This document shows, one piece after another, positions 2,647 to 19,572 of a DNA stretch of 64,000 bases. Location of the stretch: NCBI GenBank assembly GCA_964106915.2, contig OZ066919.1, one strand, 5' to 3'. The position numbers and the translations under genes are program-made. Source of the stretch: Podarcis gaigeae (lineage: Eukaryota). The notes under the pieces were generated by a model, which saw only the letters and a program-made list of their open reading frames with translations, was not told the DNA's origin and searched no databases. Each line of letters opens with the position of its first letter. The stretch's first letter is position 1.

Positions 2647-5600
2647 ATTGTGCTGTTTGGCCTGCATAAGGATTGGCACAGAGAGAATCAGTTCACTACT
2701 AGTATATAGGATGATAAGATGAACCTTGCTGGATCAGAATAAAGTTCCATCTAATCCAGTGTCTTGGATCAGACAATGGACAAGCTGATGCCTCTAGGAA
2801 GCCAGCAAGGTATGGAGGTGACAACCTTCCCCTTCTGTTTGCTTGTCCCCCGGCAACTGGCCCCTGAAGCTGGAGGTTCCCTGTAGCTAACAGCCACGGA
2901 TGGACTTAACTTCCTGAACTTGTCCGTGTGGGAACAAAACTAAAGTGGGTGAGGTCAAAGCTGGCAGTGGATGGAGCTACTCCACACTCCCTCACACACT
3001 TGCATGAACACTACACCCACATCTCTCACACACATGCATACATGCCGCCCATCTTTCTTTCACACACTGTGTATATCTCTCACAGACACTCTTGCTCAGG
3101 GGGATGCAAAGGGCTACCCCACACACTCTTTAGCTGTTCTAGAATCATTGCCACCAAGGGCCGGATCCTGTGGCATGGTGATTAGCTTTACACTACTTGA
3201 ACACATGTTGAAAGAGTGACTGAGGCAGTTAAGTGAAAAAGAGAGGCCTGCACCTTTCATAGTTGTGTAGAAGGGGGGGTCCCAGCAGGTGCTGGGGGGG
3301 GAGCAGGTATCTCTCTTCTAGCCAGCTCTTCAAAGCACAGGAGCCTTGTCTTCTTTTGTGTCTGATGTGTGTGTATGGATGTGAATTCTTTGAAAAGTGG
3401 GTTTAGCCAGCTGGTGAAAACCTTCACAGGACCAAGAATGACATCAAAATCCTGTGTTCATGTATACTGAGTAAACACATCACCAAGCAGAAGTTATTAA
3501 TACATTTTACTGGAAGACCAGCATTGACTCTGTACCACAAGGGATGGATCACATGTGAGATTCAAATACAGGCACAATATTTGCTTTTGTGATATTTCTC
3601 TATACCTTCCATTTGTCTGGTGTCTCCCCCTTTATAAAAAAAATACTTTGTGAAGCTGTTTGAGATCCTCAGGAAAGAGGCTATATTATATTTGTCCAAT
3701 AAGAAACAATCAGCAACCATGTCTTGGATGTTGCAAATCAAGCGCATCAAACTCCTTTAAGAGTAGCAAGCACATTATTCTTCTAAGTCTCAGGTAGCAG
3801 AAAGGTTTCGATTTGTTACATTTCTGTATCACTTCCCAACACACACAAACACATCCCCAAAGCAATTTACAGCCAGAGCAAAAACAGGGTTATGAAAATG
3901 CACAAGCTTATCAAAAGCATAGGGTAGCATTTGATGGTAATCCTACTCATAGCAAACCCACTGAAGTTAACAAACATAACTAATTTATGGTTCATTAATT
4001 TCAGTGGGTCTACTCTAAGCAGTTGAACACCATCTATAGGCCCACCCTCTCAAACCCTGAGCCAACCCTGATTCACAATTGTAGTAGTGTTTTGTGGGAG
4101 GGTTTGTTTGAAATCTGCCAGCATTGTTGAAAGGAGATCACTATGACATGATTCTCTATTGATACAATTGACCACTGAGCCAGCCTACCAGTAATCCATG
4201 AGCCCAGCCCTCAAATTTTGCTCATGGTCATGTGCTTCTGCGGTGGTTGAAACGTTGTGAATTTTATTCTTGCTGTGAGGCTATCAGTGAGATTTTATTC
4301 TTCAGGGCTTTCCATAAAGAAGCTGCATCCTAGAGATTCTGCTAATGCCTGAAGAGAAAGAAGAAAATACAATTACTCATGAGCCATTTAAACCCAAATT
4401 ACATGAAAATTGATATGCATATGATAGGAGATAGGCATCTATACAAAATACCAACATTAACCTTTGCCATTTTAAGCAAGCAGGTTCTTAGATTGTCGTT
4501 TTAAACCAAATGTTAATTTTTGAATTTTCAAAAGGTTTTCATTTCCTACCATATGCACAAACCTGCTTTCATTTCTGAACAGTATTATCTCTCTAGAAAG
4601 CACTTAGAAATGGCTTATGTGGCCTTTTTCCCGCAACAAGAAAAAATGAGAATTTTCCTATCCAAATCTGATTAATTTAGCACCAAGAAAATTGCAAAGG
4701 AACTTCCTTTGTTCCGAATACATTTCTCAATGGCTCAGTTTGGATTATCTTTCCTAGATTTTTTCCAGCATGAGGGAAACAAGAAGTTCTGGAATCTACT
4801 TCATCAATTCCATTTTAATGAAGTGTAACAACCACATGCACCTAGTCTTAAGAGTTCTCAAATTGGACCACACAGCGATTCCTGCTGAGTCCAGGTGGGA
4901 TGTACAACCCCATCTAAGGCTCCAACCCTATGCAAACGCCTTTGGGAATAAGTTCCACTGACCTCAGCAGAAGTTCCTCCAAAGGCTCAGTCCTTTTATT
5001 AAGAATTCTGAGTCCAAGCTCTTCTACTTAGATTATGCTTTACTAGCATAATCATTCTCCACAGAGTTGTAGGTTAACTCTATACAGATCTGAATGGCCA
5101 TTAGAATGGAAAGGGAAAGAATGAGAGAAATGTAATGTGTTGGCAGCAACCAGTCTGTTGGGGAGTGTGCTACTTGCTGAGGCAAATAACTCAGGTGAGG
5201 AGTTTATCATTAAACAGGGTATCATAGCTATGATAAAGGAACATCTTGCCTACAATGGGTTCAGGTGTTTTGCTGTTTTTTGACTAGATCTTCATAATGT
5301 GGTGGTAAGGGTCTGACAAAGCAATCAATATAATACCTGCACTATGTGTATCCTAGTAGATTAAATTGAAAATACTTGTATCAGTGGTAGCTTGATGAGA
5401 ACCAGTCTATTGGTGGTGAGAAGAACTAATCAATATACAAACACAGCCATTCTGGGTGTAGGAATTGTGCTCATGATTTTTGAATGATCTTGTTAGAAGA
5501 GCATATAGAATGCTAAGATCTGTAAAGATTCAGATTGGGCAACACAAACTAAGTACCAATATTGTGGAGCTTTGTACCTCTTTTCCAGTTCCCAGACAAT

Positions 5601-8891: not shown

Positions 8892-9035
8892 TAGTTGTTC
8901 CGTAATTAACTGGGCTGCCACTGCAAGCTTCTGTCTAGGCAAGGGCCACTGATCCACCCATACGGGGGTGTCTGTGGTCCAGCAGAGAGAAAGCGCAGTC
9001 CGGGGCATGGCAGGGGCAGCCCTCAGCATAAATTT
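8892..9035 (-). pseudogene. pol: ERV pol 5' stub (first ~45 aa of RT), remainder deleted
   Basis: LCWTTDTPVWVDQWPLPRQKL...LITEQL matches the beta/alpha RT N-terminus (W.SD.PVWV.QWPL..EKL....L..EQL); similarity stops after EQL and the frame stops at 8832. Confidence 0.9.
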
Positions 9036-9730
9036 GTAGAAATTGTAGTTTCCGCTGCAGCAAGCAGATCTCGCCCCCAAAGGGAGACGGGAATGTCCAG
9101 AACCAGTGGTAAGATAGTCATCTCAAAGCCTTGTGAGCCTTGAATCAAAATAGGGTTCCTGCTGCGTCGGGCAGCTGCAGCGCCACCAACGCCAATAACA
9201 GAGGAAGCTGGCTCAAGTGGCCAGGCGGAGGGCCAATCCTTAATAGCAATCACAGAACAGTCTGCCCCCGTGTCCAAAACCCCTTCAATCGTGCGACCCC
9301 CAAGGGTCATCTGGATCTTTGGACGCTTCTCTGTGACTGGGAAGGTAGCAGCAACAAGGGGGTCATGGTCCTGGGTTGGCCCTGGGACGCATATGAGCTT
9401 TGCTATAGGAGAACCTGATTGCAAACGTGCCTGGCGATCAGAAAATACAGTCACATAGGGGTCATTTTGTTGTAATCCATGTAAAACATCTGGAACAAGG
9501 TGAATCCCATGCTGCAAAACCTCTGACAGTGGAAAAACAAGGCACTGTGCTGAAGAAGAAAAACCAGCCTCTAATGACACTCTGACTTGGTGTGGTACAT
9601 AGGGGACTGGCAGGTATAAGTCCTGAATTAAAAGGAGGCGGGGCAAGGCCGGAGGTGAGATGGCTGGAGAATGCGCTGGATCCCCTATTGTTGAGCCTGG
9701 GCCCGGGGTGGGCCCGACTGCCGGTTTCCC
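9023..9730 (-). CDS. pro: ERV Pro (-1 frame): degenerate dUTPase-like domain plus aspartic protease
   Basis: LDTGAD active site, WPSAWP, IGVGG flap, LWGRDLL; upstream segment ends GSPIAKLICVP (cf. dUTPase motif G.RIAQL); entered via G GGA AAC. Confidence 0.93.
   Translation of the reverse strand, partial: GKPAVGPTPGPGSTIGDPAHSPAISPPALPRLLLIQDLYLPVPYVPHQVRVSLEAGFSSSAQCLVFPLSEVLQHGIHLVPDVLHGLQQNDPYVTVFSDRQARLQSGSPIAKLICVPGPTQDHDPLVAATFPVTEKRPKIQMTLGGRTIEGVLDTGADCSVIAIKDWPSAWPLEPASSVIGVGGAAAARRSRNPILIQGSQGFEMTILPLVLDIPVSLWGRDLLAAAETTISTNLC
9029..9035 (-). promoter_or_regulatory. pro-pol -1 slippery heptamer A AAT TTA
   Basis: At the end of pro (T-N-L-C-stop), in register with the RT frame; same heptamer as RSV gag-pol. 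Confidence 0.8.
9680..9730 (-). promoter_or_regulatory. gag-pro -1 ribosomal frameshift site with H-type pseudoknot
   Basis: GGGAAAC (9730-9724), spacer, then GGGCC-CACCCC-G-GGCCC-AGGCUCAACAAUA-GGGG: stem 1 GGGCC/GGCCC and stem 2 CCCC/GGGG, the layout of the SRV-1/MPMV signal. Confidence 0.85.
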
Positions 9731-11250
9731 GTCGGTTGATTTTGCTGGTTCTGTTGAGGCGTGGCGGAGCGACACTGATTGGCCCAGTGGAAACCTTTTT
9801 TGCAAATGGGGCATTTTGTGCTAGGACGACTTTGCTCTGTATTAGATCTGCACTGTGCACGAAAATGGCCCACTTTGCCACATCCATAGCAGGTTTTATC
9901 CTTTGCAGGATTTTTGGACACAGTGGAGGATAGAGCTGCGGCTAGCAAGCGAGCTTTATGTATCTCAGTCCCCACCGATTGGCAGGCTTTAAGCATATCT
10001 GCAATGGCTACATTGGGAGTTGCCAGCAAAGGGCGTAGTGCTTGCTTACAGTCCTCATTCGTATTATCAAACGCAAGCTGGCGGACAATCACTGCTTGGG
10101 CTGCTACGTCCTGAACTTGCCGTTTAAGGGTGTTATACAAGCGATCGACAAATTGTCCATAGGGCTCTGTAGGACCTTGTCTAACGCTCCCCCATCGGCC
10201 ATCGCGCTCAGTTTTGTCATCAGGGACAGAAGCCAAGGCCTCCTGAGCAGCAGCCGTAGTGGCCTCCCAATATTGAGGATCGAGAGTTAGTTGTTGGGCA
10301 GCAGTAAGAAAATTGCCTCCTCCCGTTAATCCATCGAGGACATCAGCTTGGGTTAACATGACGGGGGGTTGCGGTGGTGCGGCACCAGCAGCGGCAGCAG
10401 CCAAAGCAGCCTGATGATTAGCCAATGCAACATTATTAAGATTATTCCTAATCCCATCTGCACGACGTTGGCAGGCCCAGTGCCAAGCTTGTATAAACAA
10501 AATCATTTGATGAGGCTGCATTACAGTGCGGGCCAACAGCTTAACATCCTCTGGTATCAAATTTTGTTGAAAAATAGTGGCAAACAAGCCCAAGGTGTAA
10601 GGAGATTGCAAGCCATTGTTCTGGACAGAGGAATACAGTTCTTTTATGAATCTCAAATCAAACTGTTCGTGCCGGGCTGGGCCTCCCCCTGGCGCGGCAG
10701 GAGCAATCACAGGAAAAAGATTAGGAGTTGTAGAATCAAAAGCTAGCAACGGAGCAGCGGCGCGAAGAGATTCTTGAAGTGGGGTGGAAGCGGTGCCAGA
10801 TGCCTTGGGCGGAGGAGGTGGAAGAGCGGGGGGTGCTGCAGAATTTGAAGAATGCAGGGGAGTGACAGGAGGAGCCGAAGGGCAAATGTCCGGTGGTTTA
10901 GGAGGCAGGTTTGAGGCAGGCAAAGCGGGAGCTGGGAGGGCAGGCGAAGAAGCTGTTGCGGCAGCCAGAAGAATGTTTGAAGGAGTTAAGCACGACATAG
11001 CTTTGTAGACGTTAGACCAGGCATGCAAAACTTTGACATCAATCTGAGGATGATTTTGAAAGAAGTGTCCAATTTTTTTCCAATCGTCTAACGCATAATT
11101 TCCGTCCTGGGGGAACCAGGGACAGTGAGTGTCCAGGGCTATTATAAGGGACTTAAGGTCAGCTTTCTGAACAGCAAGGTTGTTACTGGCCAAAAGGAAT
11201 TTAAGGTCTTTATAAAAATTTTTCTGTGGTGCAGAGAGAGACTTTCCCAT
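9685..11250 (-). CDS. gag: ERV Gag polyprotein, intact 521 aa
   Basis: MGKSLS myristoylation motif; beta-type matrix CPWFPQDG..W..IG; PSAP late domain; F/PV MA-CA cleavage site; MHR VRQGPTEPYGQFVDRL; two CCHC knuckles CYGCGKVGHFRAQC and CPICKKGFHWANQC. Confidence 0.97.
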   Translation of the reverse strand: MGKSLSAPQKNFYKDLKFLLASNNLAVQKADLKSLIIALDTHCPWFPQDGNYALDDWKKIGHFFQNHPQIDVKVLHAWSNVYKAMSCLTPSNILLAAATASSPALPAPALPASNLPPKPPDICPSAPPVTPLHSSNSAAPPALPPPPPKASGTASTPLQESLRAAAPLLAFDSTTPNLFPVIAPAAPGGGPARHEQFDLRFIKELYSSVQNNGLQSPYTLGLFATIFQQNLIPEDVKLLARTVMQPHQMILFIQAWHWACQRRADGIRNNLNNVALANHQAALAAAAAGAAPPQPPVMLTQADVLDGLTGGGNFLTAAQQLTLDPQYWEATTAAAQEALASVPDDKTERDGRWGSVRQGPTEPYGQFVDRLYNTLKRQVQDVAAQAVIVRQLAFDNTNEDCKQALRPLLATPNVAIADMLKACQSVGTEIHKARLLAAALSSTVSKNPAKDKTCYGCGKVGHFRAQCRSNTEQSRPSTKCPICKKGFHWANQCRSATPQQNQQNQPTGNRQSGPPRAQAQQ

Positions 11251-11274
11251 GATTGCAAGAGTTGCAAAAGAGCA

Positions 11275-11594
11275 GGGAGCACTTACCGGAGGGATCCTTA
11301 GGAGGATGAGGGAGGCGCCTTTTGCCCTGTCCGGGCGGAGATAAGTGCTGATAAATCCGTAACGTAGTCCAGAATCACATTCACACGGGAGCTCTCACCG
11401 GGGATCCACAACGTGGATGAACGACGCGTCTGCAGTCCTGGCAGGCGAGGTGAGGCTGAACGTTGTAAAACAGCATGAAGTCCGAAAGAAATCACACGGG
11501 AGCACTCATCAGGGATCCACTACGTGGATGAACGACGTGTTGGTGAGCGCTGAATAAGACAACGTGAAGTCCGAAGGCCTCACACGGGGCACCA
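11275..11594 (-). repeat. ERV leader made of ~3 tandem ~110-nt repeats
   Basis: GGATCC at 11292, 11402, 11513; TCACACGGG at 11381, 11492, 11580; shared GTGGATGAACGACG and GAAGTCCGAA blocks; major splice donor G|GTAAGT on minus at 11286-11281. Confidence 0.85.
11578..11594 (-). promoter_or_regulatory. Primer-binding site complementary to elongator tRNA-Met
   Basis: Minus strand TGGTGCCCCGTGTGAGG; + strand CCTCACACGGGGCACCA equals the recalled 3' end of vertebrate elongator tRNA-Met(CAU) including CCA. Confidence 0.85.
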
Positions 11595-17492: not shown

Positions 17493-18578
17493 ATAGGACA
17501 CCTAAGTTAGGCAAGACTTGCTTGTTATACAATAAATAAAGCAATAAAATTCCCAGATGCACCCAGAGGCTTTGTAGAGCACTTCATGCATATGTCAGTT
17601 CTGGCATTCAAAGTCTATGTGCCAGATCTCCAAAATTCTGAGACAGAGTTAAAAACCCAACACTCCAAAAATGTTTTGTGTTCTCACATTTTGTCAGGGG
17701 TGGGTTTTGTTTTTGGTGTTTTGGTTTTCTTAGAGTAATGTATGGATTCCACAAGCACAAGGGTTGTAATTAATATTGACTTGTGTTGACTTATTCTAAT
17801 TCTGGCACATGTCAGCTGTGTCTTAGCAGTCGCTTTGGCATGCATCTTCTGTTTTGCTGTGAAATTATCTCATATGCGTTCCAATCTCTTGTCTCCAGCC
17901 TGCGCTGCCTTCTGACCATCTGGTTGCCTAATGTTACTCAATTGGTCTCTTACGTTACCCTTGTGGTGCCAAATGTCTTTGAAGTAACTAGAAATCTCCC
18001 AACCCGTATAGATCAGAACTAGGAGCTGGTGTTGTGGGGCCTGAGAATCACATGCATCTGGGTATTTGCTGTTACATTTAAAGCATTAAAGTTGTGATCC
18101 TGGGTTTAAGTCTCATAGAACCCGGTGTTACTCGCTTCTGAGCAGACCTGCATAGCATTGTAGTGTAAGGTTTTGTTTTGTTTTTAAAGAGCAACTCAGT
18201 ACTCTCCACTTTACACAGCAAATTGAGTTTTCCTTCATCTGCCTGATGAAGGAAAGGTGGGAGCAGAAATATCCTAAGAAATACTGGCAAGACTGGCAGT
18301 CCTGTCTAAAGTTGACTGTATTAATTTTGTGTTTAAAATGATGCCTTAGGGTATAGTGGAACTTAAATGTAAATTGTATGTCCCAGATTTGTATTCAGTT
18401 TGTTCTGAGATTTTTAAAAAAAATTAACCATATATCTTGGATTAAAGTCAGGTGAGGCTTTTCTTACATCAGTTCATTCTTTTGTGAAGGTGGAAAATGA
18501 AATGATGACATGTATTGATGGAATTATATGATGATCTTGCTAAAGCTACTGGTCTTGCTATATCTACTAAAGCGTGAG

Positions 18579-19338
18579 TGTCAGGGGTTCAGAAGGAGAG
18601 ACACAGGAGGGGGAGCAAATGGAGAGTGAGGAGGAAGAGGACGAAGGGGGAGCAGGAAGTGACAGCTGCCAGAGTCATTCCGCAAGCCTCTCTAGTGAAT
18701 CGGAAGACTCGCAGAAGGGAGCACCGATGGCCAGAGCAAGGGAGATTCCAGGGGAGAAACCTCAAGAGGGAGGGGCCAGCGGGGAGTCCCTGAGCAGCAG
18801 TTGGAAATCGGGACCAGCTTCCCCACCAGAGCGCAGTGGGGAGGGGGAGTCCCAGGAGTCGGAACCAGTGTTCTTGCCACCAGCGGGAGGAGAGGAGGCA
18901 GGGCTGGCCACGCCCACATCCGGAAGCGGGGAAACGGTCAGAAGGAAGGTTACCGGCTGGGCGCGCGCGCCAAGTTCAAATGTACAGGCGAGCGGCACAG
19001 CGGGGAGTCCTGACAGGGAGCCAGGTCCTAAAGCCCGCCGGAAGGAAGGGCGGGACTCAGGGGGGTCAGCTTCAGAGGAATCAAGGAAGGAGATAACCCC
19101 AGAGGGCAGAAGGACCCAGCGTAGGAAGGAGCAGCGTAGGAGGTGGAGCAAAGCGAGAATCTTAAACTGGTGTGGCTTTAGCAGCGAGTCAGAGGGGACT
19201 TAGCCGGTCTAGCGTTAAGACGTGGGTCTGCGCGCCCAGAGCTTGGAAATGGAAACTAAACTTCAATAAAGACTTTTGTATATAATATCCACTGGGCGTT
19301 GGTCCTCTGTGAGCTGGGACCTAGCGGCAGTCCTGACA
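18579..19338 (+). mobile_element. Solo LTR (760 bp, probably Gypsy-type) with 5-bp TSD
   Basis: Termini TGTCAGG...CCTGACA; perfect TSD GTGAG at 18574-18578 and 19339-19343; AATAAA at 19265-19270; CpG-rich, so likely young. Confidence 0.9.
18619..19203 (+). CDS. Putative LTR(U3)-encoded protein, 194 aa, acidic/Ser-rich with C-terminal Arg-rich motif
   Basis: Frame open from the start of the LTR to 19203; MESEEEEDE...RRTQRRKEQRRRWSKARILNW; expression unproven. Confidence 0.45.
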   Translation: MESEEEEDEGGAGSDSCQSHSASLSSESEDSQKGAPMARAREIPGEKPQEGGASGESLSSSWKSGPASPPERSGEGESQESEPVFLPPAGGEEAGLATPTSGSGETVRRKVTGWARAPSSNVQASGTAGSPDREPGPKARRKEGRDSGGSASEESRKEITPEGRRTQRRKEQRRRWSKARILNWCGFSSESEGT

Positions 19339-19572
19339 GTGAGAATCACCTAACCAGCCCCCTTAGTGGAAACCCTGCACAAGGACTTCCACTTGCACAA
19401 AGGGGCTTCTTCCTCTCTCCTTTCCCTATGCACCCCTGGAATTGGTTTAGGGAGGGGGTCTGGAGGACCCCCAGAACAGCATGTAGAGGAGTCATTCTAC
19501 CTGGCAGGCTGCAGTGCTTACACAGATGGAATGTTTGGAAGAGCGCAACATTGAGTTCTGCCCAAAGCTTTT

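Follow-up and report, generated by a model that had tools for sequence, protein, structure and literature searches.

The long open frame of a solo LTR found in a 64,000-nucleotide stretch of Podarcis gaigeae DNA (contig OZ066919.1; the whole stretch is referred to here as the window) is the C-terminal end of the Pol polyprotein of a Ty3/gypsy chromovirus, and not a separate gene. In two full-length copies of the parent element (L031 and L032), the Pol frame crosses the polypurine tract and enters the 3' LTR without a stop codon, and the solo LTRs are leftovers that carry this Pol tail passively. The reading that we consider probable is that the frame is the U3-encoded integrase end of a young, self-priming chromovirus, likely a disordered tail that would serve nuclear entry and chromatin tethering.

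The solo LTR and its parent element

The locus was initially annotated as a 760-bp LTR with a perfect target-site duplication, and this description holds, with GTGAG on both sides and TG...CA ends. The features, in window coordinates, are the following:

18574..18578, no strand: 5' target-site duplication GTGAG (sequence)
18579..19338, + strand: solo LTR, 760 bp, TG...CA, Ty3/gypsy chromovirus subfamily A (near-identical genomic matches; full-length parents L031-L034)
18580..19203, + strand: last 207 Pol codons (integrase C-terminal extension) and the stop codon, encoded by U3 (in frame with the 1566-codon Pol of L031 and L032; dN/dS)
18619..18621, + strand: in-frame ATG, an internal Met of the tail and no conserved start (found in subfamilies A-D, absent in the relatives P0001, P0002 and P0242)
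19108..19170, + strand: terminal motif RR-x3-R-x3-R-x-R-x-S-x4-L-x-W, predicted single helix (invariant columns in 8 copies of A-E; codon usage; AlphaFold)
19160..19167, + strand: TATA-like box TCTTAAAC, putative core promoter overlapping the I-L-N codons (TTA Leu codon; position relative to the self-primer)
19191..19202, + strand: self-primer, the complement of the PBS, and likely transcription start at the U3/R border (11-12 nt match between the PBS and the element's own LTR)
19265..19270, + strand: polyadenylation signal AATAAA (sequence)
19339..19343, no strand: 3' target-site duplication GTGAG (sequence)

The frame has no stop from 18580 to 19200, that is, 207 codons or 82% of the LTR, and ends with the stop codon at 19201-19203, 61 nt upstream of AATAAA. 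The initial annotation had counted 208 codons and a spacing of 60 nt; the long frame is real and the spacing close, although one of the counted codons straddles the target duplication. The product of 194 aa read from the ATG at 18619 was correctly described, as were the peptide motifs quoted from it, and a Pfam search with this product returned no family at E up to 1. The composition of the LTR part is of low complexity (S/E/G), with 22 hydrophobic residues in 207, while the last 32 residues of the tail include 10 K/R.

Shuffled sequence had been proposed as a check on a frame of this length, and frames of at least 207 codons arose in 0.6% of 5000 dinucleotide shuffles of the LTR (+ strand), with the stricter nulls giving 2-3% (2.2% in six frames, 2.2-2.6% when shuffled block-wise). 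The length by itself is thus only moderately above chance, and it is the family evidence, not the shuffle, that establishes the frame. DNA contigs from four of the 20 sequencing runs with matches, which bear four organism labels, cover all 30 bins, and the sole indel listed at a 20% share in these contigs lies 3' of the stop codon, the G-run stretch being excluded as a repeat.

Two other observations concern this region of the window. A GC-rich block of the U3, GGCGCGCGCGCCAAGTTCAAA, at 18960-18982, is kept in subfamily D and deeply covered in four runs; we take it to resemble adjacent E2F and CHR sites; it overlaps the W-A-R-A-P-S-S codons and is possibly a promoter element active in the germline or the cell cycle. 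On the minus strand, at 9023-11394, lies a betaretrovirus-like gag frame of 569 codons (Gag_p10, p24 and zinc knuckles), overlapped by a 265-codon dUTPase-protease frame, and these are the remnant of an endogenous retrovirus unrelated to the solo LTR.

The comparison of the LTR with its own genome yielded 2420 candidates, with all 40 of the scored matches being 99-100% identical, and LTR pairs spaced about 5.8 kb apart led to full-length elements of 6574-6586 bp. Subfamily A, to which the solo LTR belongs, is very young, given that the two LTRs of L031 differ at one of 760 bases. This copy has a gag frame of 370 codons, whose product carries a CCHC knuckle, followed in the -1 frame by a Pol frame of 1566 codons, in which Pfam recognises the protease, RT, RNase H, integrase and a Tf2-type SH3 domain, in that order. 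A chromodomain is also present: a profile of the A, B and E tails matches the HP1/CBX chromodomains in the PDB (best E 4.5e-6), and as the Pfam Chromo family has no match with the subfamily A sequence alone (L031 Pol), the domain is degenerate in A. Past the chromodomain, the L031 Pol continues for 154 codons, the polypurine tract and then the 207 LTR codons. The same Pol frame ends in the 3' LTR of L032, whereas those of L033 and L034 are broken farther upstream or at the junction. The earlier suggestion that an ORF of the internal region runs into the LTR, and that its tail is the frame left behind with every solo LTR, was therefore right, and this ORF is Pol itself.

This Pol has 441 residues beyond the SH3 domain, as against about 65-100 in most of the other Pol hits. 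The closest named proteins are Pols of Podarcis muralis, among which P0002 ends in the same motif. A search of the ESM Atlas with the 420-aa tail gave a best score of 0.81, below the recognition threshold, and its only lead was the chromodomain.

Every subfamily has one or more copies with an in-frame junction between Pol and the LTR; the junction is frameshifted in G-runs just 5' of the LTR in one of five A copies, two of three D copies, three C copies and one of four full-length B copies; the three frameshifted C junctions stand against a single amplified insertion of C that is in frame. The affected G-run varies from copy to copy, and slippage or sequencing error fits better than a programmed feature; the frameshifts may be errors of sequencing, slippage that followed insertion or a sign that the tail is dispensable. 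At the end of gag, the slippery heptamer GGGAAAC was found, within the window scanned, in five of 10 A-D copies, in none of four A copies and in none of four E copies.

The genomic survey also provided a number of observations on the copies themselves. A solo LTR of subfamily A is nested in a full-length element of subfamily B (L036:6540-7299), and two subfamily D LTRs spaced at 2925 bp, which share their flanks and an extra base (L041:1123-1883 and 4048-4808), are either a tandem duplication or an assembly repeat. At two loci (L105 and L106), the 3' half of a subfamily B element directly follows an RT frame, with an identical junction at both; by its motif, we take this frame to be Ty1/copia-like. 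Contig C32 has numerous full-length copies from every clade, and is possibly a repeat-rich sex chromosome. At 24.7-27.4 Mb it carries many full-length copies of subfamily C with identical flanks and a GTCGC duplication (L079-L101), which points to a single insertion amplified together with its surroundings. The 68 solo LTRs of A-D among L001-L136 have a strong palindromic target preference, with A/T three bases outside the duplication in 67 of the 68 left flanks and in all 68 right flanks, and a duplication of the form RYNRY in 22 of the 68, against a background of 5%; several are inserted in (AAT)n runs.

Selection on the LTR-encoded part and its terminal motif

The further subfamilies share about 89% (D), about 82% (C) and 75-78% (B) LTR identity with A. 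Among the best-scoring copies of each, which are not a random sample, the frame runs uninterrupted as far as the motif in 29 of 30 copies of A, 23 of 25 of D, 27 of 30 of C and 15 of 30 of B; in the remaining A copy, from which the first two bases are missing, 206 codons are open. Pairwise dN/dS of the LTR part, computed on real copies, is 0.23-0.24 for A-D, 0.31-0.32 for A-C and 0.51-0.53 for A-B, with all of the bootstrap intervals below 0.8, compared with 0.04-0.20 in the enzyme domains. The other sense frames give 0.98-2.17 (+1) and 0.61-1.52 (+2), the only other frame with low values being the antisense frame that shares its third positions. Differences by codon position amount to 11/17/40, 27/22/56 and 33/47/69 (p 3e-5 to 1e-3), and the third-position excess over four pairs has p values of 3e-5 to 9e-3. 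Between A and B, indels of 3 and 63 nt lie inside the frame, and indels of 1 nt lie in R/U5. In a neutral simulation, the frame remained open in 34, 27 and 13 of 1500 runs. On these comparative grounds, the LTR part is judged to be under purifying, protein-level selection across the diverged subfamilies, and the conservation of the frame that the initial annotation had asked for is seen in the dN/dS below 1, the in-frame indels and the conserved R..S..L.W. Much of the LTR part is a spacer, given that codons 61-120 have a dN/dS of 1.06-1.07 in the A-B pair. The terminal motif of 23 codons has values of 0.08-0.30, but with intervals that reach 0.96 in the worst pair.

A more distant clade, E, is represented by 147 matches in the same genome and shares 64% RT-IN identity with A. 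The LTRs of this clade are shorter, at 396-407 bp; Pol again reads through the polypurine tract in the G-G-E-x-D-V-R register seen in A, and ends in the same terminal motif about 96-100 codons into the LTR. Between A-D and E, the spacer is not alignable while the end, about the last 21 residues, is, with the residues R, R, R, R, R, S, L and W of the motif being invariant in eight copies of A-E. The Ser is encoded by AGY in all 75 rows of A-D and by TCN in all 38 rows of E, and the Arg codons also differ, so that the same residues written with different codons point to a protein-level constraint on the motif. AlphaFold predictions for eight sequences placed one helix over the motif (17-44), with a pLDDT of 72-76 in the helix blocks and a mean of 62. 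The profile of the motif had one hit in the PDB (E 0.56), which was taken as chance, and likenesses to the CENP-C motif, SAM and calponin-homology domains were dropped, having no supporting evidence. Clade E is a second very young clade, with dozens of Pol frames of 1376 codons (L162-L166), whose LTR ends in TA in L162 and L163, with the canonical AATAAA being absent from its 3' part.

A profile search of 1.84 billion proteins retrieved further families with the same layout (P0241, P0242 and P0247), all the named ones being from Podarcis. In a midpoint-rooted tree built from two copies, the 45 best of 100 long hits and a Pol from a fish, the A and E elements and the Podarcis Pols formed one clade with a support of 1.0, and this clade grouped with the fish Pol P0086 and one other Pol (support 0.96) in a sample that included no named Sushi or Amn references. 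Among the Pol hits compared, no other clade had such a long, selected tail encoded by the LTR, or its motifs.

Promoter, FxGF motif and role of the tail

In nine of 10 full-length elements, the bases 3' of the 5' LTR complement the element's own LTR over 11-12 nt, and the PBS and the self-primer co-vary among A/D, B, C and E. By this complementarity, the A-E elements are classed as self-priming in the manner of the Tf1/sushi group, in which the primer is the 5' end of the element's own RNA (PMC4600332, PMC6317226). Given that the self-primer would correspond to the 5' end of the RNA, transcription likely starts near 19191, at the end of the frame. The TATA-like TCTTAAAC lies about 30 nt upstream of this start, and in all 113 rows of A-E the Leu within it is written TTA. 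With a start at this position, the LTR frame would be nearly all U3, the genomic RNA would contain it only near its 3' end, and the promoter of a solo LTR would not transcribe the Pol-tail frame that the LTR carries. Since promoter and motif share sequence at the TATA-like box, two residues near the end of the motif, the invariant Leu (TTA in every row) and the Trp (which has one codon), may be partly constrained by the promoter, rather than by the protein.

A second short motif, F-x(7-10)-F-x-G-F, is found just 3' of the chromodomain and upstream of the LTR, once in A-D and twice in E. Its F..F-x-G-F residues are invariant in all 10 aligned tails, and the pattern, which was defined post hoc, occurs in 13 of 14 tail-bearing relatives and in none of 255 other hits, as well as in 1.4% of the shuffles of the A spacer. 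The linkers are acidic in E and in three further families, and Ser/Thr-rich in A-D, where they would be acidic only if phosphorylated. The TND-interacting motif (TIM) is described as a helix, an acidic or phosphorylated linker of 8-16 residues and FxGF (PMC9987994; also 10.1101/624023, PMC7220354), with the FxGF being essential in the partners of LEDGF and HRP2 (PMC9987994). The lizard motif resembles the TIM/IBM of IWS1, KMT2A, JPO2 and JIL-1 in its short putative helix with Phe/Leu, the linker of 7-10 acidic or Ser/Thr-rich residues and the FxGF. It lies outside the LTR, upstream, and its linker in subfamily A is Ser/Thr-rich and not acidic.

The host genome has genes with LEDGF domains. The dN/dS over the 30-codon FxGF stretch (0.34-0.45 in A-B and A-C) was counted against a LEDGF reading. 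Profiles of the motif gave no hits in the PDB in one case and a single unrelated hit (E 0.52) in the other, and these profiles also failed to recover the LEDGF-motif fusion chains present in the PDB library. A complex prediction for the lizard PSIP1 IBD (P0134, 400-492) and the subfamily A FxGF peptide gave no answer (score 0.00), in a run without alignments and with a tool unproven on peptides, and carries no weight either way. By its pattern, the tail motif resembles LEDGF/HRP2-binding motifs, and the putative binding is offered as a lead.

In the proposed mechanism, Pol would be translated from the genomic RNA after a -1 shift out of the gag frame, and the integrase would retain, after cleavage by the protease, an extension of about 360 residues behind the chromodomain. 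This extension would comprise the helix-linker-FxGF motif, an acidic Ser/Pro/Gly spacer and the terminal basic amphipathic helix, which would act in nuclear import and as an anchor on chromatin or DNA, with phosphorylation of the Ser that is invariant in R-x-R-x-S as a possible switch. The role in import and tethering is proposed because of the analogy with the plant CRM group A and with the Ty3 integrase, whose C-terminal part binds a host transcription factor and sets the insertion site (10.1101/2021.07.27.453949). An extended version of this mechanism, which we put forward tentatively and regard as rather doubtful, is that the lacertid clade replaced chromodomain targeting by a tail that mimics host motifs, with FxGF docking on LEDGF/HRP2 and the LTR-encoded basic helix on chromatin, so that insertions would be steered through the TND-TIM network by a module encoded in part in the element's own promoter.

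A different account would have Pol read-through kept open mainly for RNA reasons: a stop codon 61 nt before the polyadenylation signal would avoid the decay of RNAs with a long 3' UTR, the peptide would have little function, and its end would be held by the promoter. The low-complexity S/E/G composition, with its 22 hydrophobic residues in 207, the dN/dS of about 1 in the middle third (A-B), an LTR part ranging from about 96 to 233 codons among the clades and the invariant TTA at the TATA-like box are all consistent with this account. We nevertheless consider it unlikely, because the dN/dS of the whole LTR part is well below 1, and the Arg and Ser of the motif are reached through different codon families in A-D and E, as no DNA element would need. 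A chance frame in G/A-rich sequence, which 0.6-3% of the composition-matched shuffles do yield, can be virtually dismissed, as it is refuted by the continuity with Pol, the dN/dS, the codon-position bias, the in-frame indels and the presence of the tail in a distant clade.

Two further alternatives derive from the initial annotation, which had seen in the frame a Rev-like accessory protein. The arginine-rich motif of Rev is an RNA-binding helix, and the basic helix of the tail might be a module of this type, which as part of Gag-Pol or integrase would act on the RNA of the element itself, in packaging or dimerisation or as a chaperone of self-priming, given that the Arg-rich stretch is predicted as a single helix and that the end of the tail is rich in K/R (10 in the last 32 residues). 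Richness in Arg is, however, the sole likeness to Rev, for which neither Pfam nor the PDB gave a match. The pattern used for a nuclear export signal (NES), phi-x2-3-phi-x2-3-phi-x-phi, was not found in the post-chromodomain tail, the motif has an invariant Ser and a hydrophobic L-x-W end, and Gag already has a CCHC knuckle, so that this module is judged improbable. Less probable still, to the point of being hardly credible, is that the tail additionally exists as an accessory protein of its own, translated from an RNA spliced at the GTAAGT after the 5' LTR or from solo LTRs in host transcripts. The GTAAG 3' of the 5' LTR in A-D, three weak acceptor-like sites kept in A-D in the 3' part of pol and a G at +4 of the ATG at 18619 would favour it, but clade E has GCAATC at the position of GTAAG, whose bases are accounted for by the self-priming site, and the acceptor-like sites fall in conserved codons. 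Moreover, the ATG is missing from P0001, P0002 and P0242, and the frame, which is the end of Pol, lies upstream of the inferred start site. An integrase tail for nuclear entry and tethering is thus retained as the preferred reading.

Comparison with known systems

The Pol tail explains how an intact frame of 200 codons occurs in a very common solo LTR of this genome, and the case warns against calling such LTR frames new genes. The frame also provides a coding-based means of locating the start site and dating LTR subfamilies. To our knowledge, the choice of insertion sites by vertebrate chromoviruses has been little studied; the clade is young and abundant, and its two short conserved motifs are testable as peptides. 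Lentiviral integrases hijack the LEDGF/HRP2 reader through a different surface, and if FxGF binds LEDGF/HRP2, this would be a case of convergence with lentiviral targeting, by direct mimicry of the motif. In the retroviral nef and sag, the coding sequence overlaps U3, as does the lizard tail. With HIV-1 Rev, the tail has in common an Arg-rich helix with a Trp, and differs in being a part of Pol instead of a separate gene.

In a literature search of partial coverage, made without subscription papers, Repbase/Dfam or supplements, nothing was found that deals with these lizard elements, with a U3 filled by the pol frame of a vertebrate Ty3/gypsy element or with FxGF/TIM motifs in a retrotransposon, and supplementary family tables may already list these elements. 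The available text of one paper on LTR structure (PMC3601003) contains neither "ORF" nor "open reading frame".

According to the sources (PMC6317226, PMC4600332), the lizard elements share with the V-clade of Tf1/sushi (Sushi-ichi, Amn-ichi/ni/san) the PR-RT-RH-IN order, the GPY/SH3 domain and the chromodomain, as well as the self-priming site, a TG...CA LTR with AATAAA and the 5-bp target duplication. The difference is the long, selected LTR-encoded tail with its motifs, which was found, among the Pol hits compared, only in the lizard clade.

The initial annotation had regarded a U3-overlapping ORF as untypical of Gypsy-type LTRs, which has to be qualified, given that Pol extends into the 3' LTR in the plant CRM group A and in Bingo1-4/7 of beet (PMC3059260, PMC3605345), the CR motif in the 3' LTR of CRM being regarded as a targeting domain (PMC3059260). 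The lizard element has the same layout, with a Pol frame that runs into the 3' LTR, and is likened to CRM in this layout only, without being a member of CRM. Its host is a vertebrate, it retains, 5' of the polypurine tract, a chromodomain that has not given way to a CR motif, its extension is far longer, with about 360 residues after the chromodomain (207 of them in the LTR), and it has a self-primer where group A has tRNA-Met. A vertebrate clade of Ty3/gypsy would thus have evolved, apart from plant CRM, a selected integrase extension that overlaps both the U3 and the core promoter. The entry of Pol into the LTR was already known in plant chromoviruses, and what appears to be new, judging from the literature covered, is such a tail in a vertebrate element.
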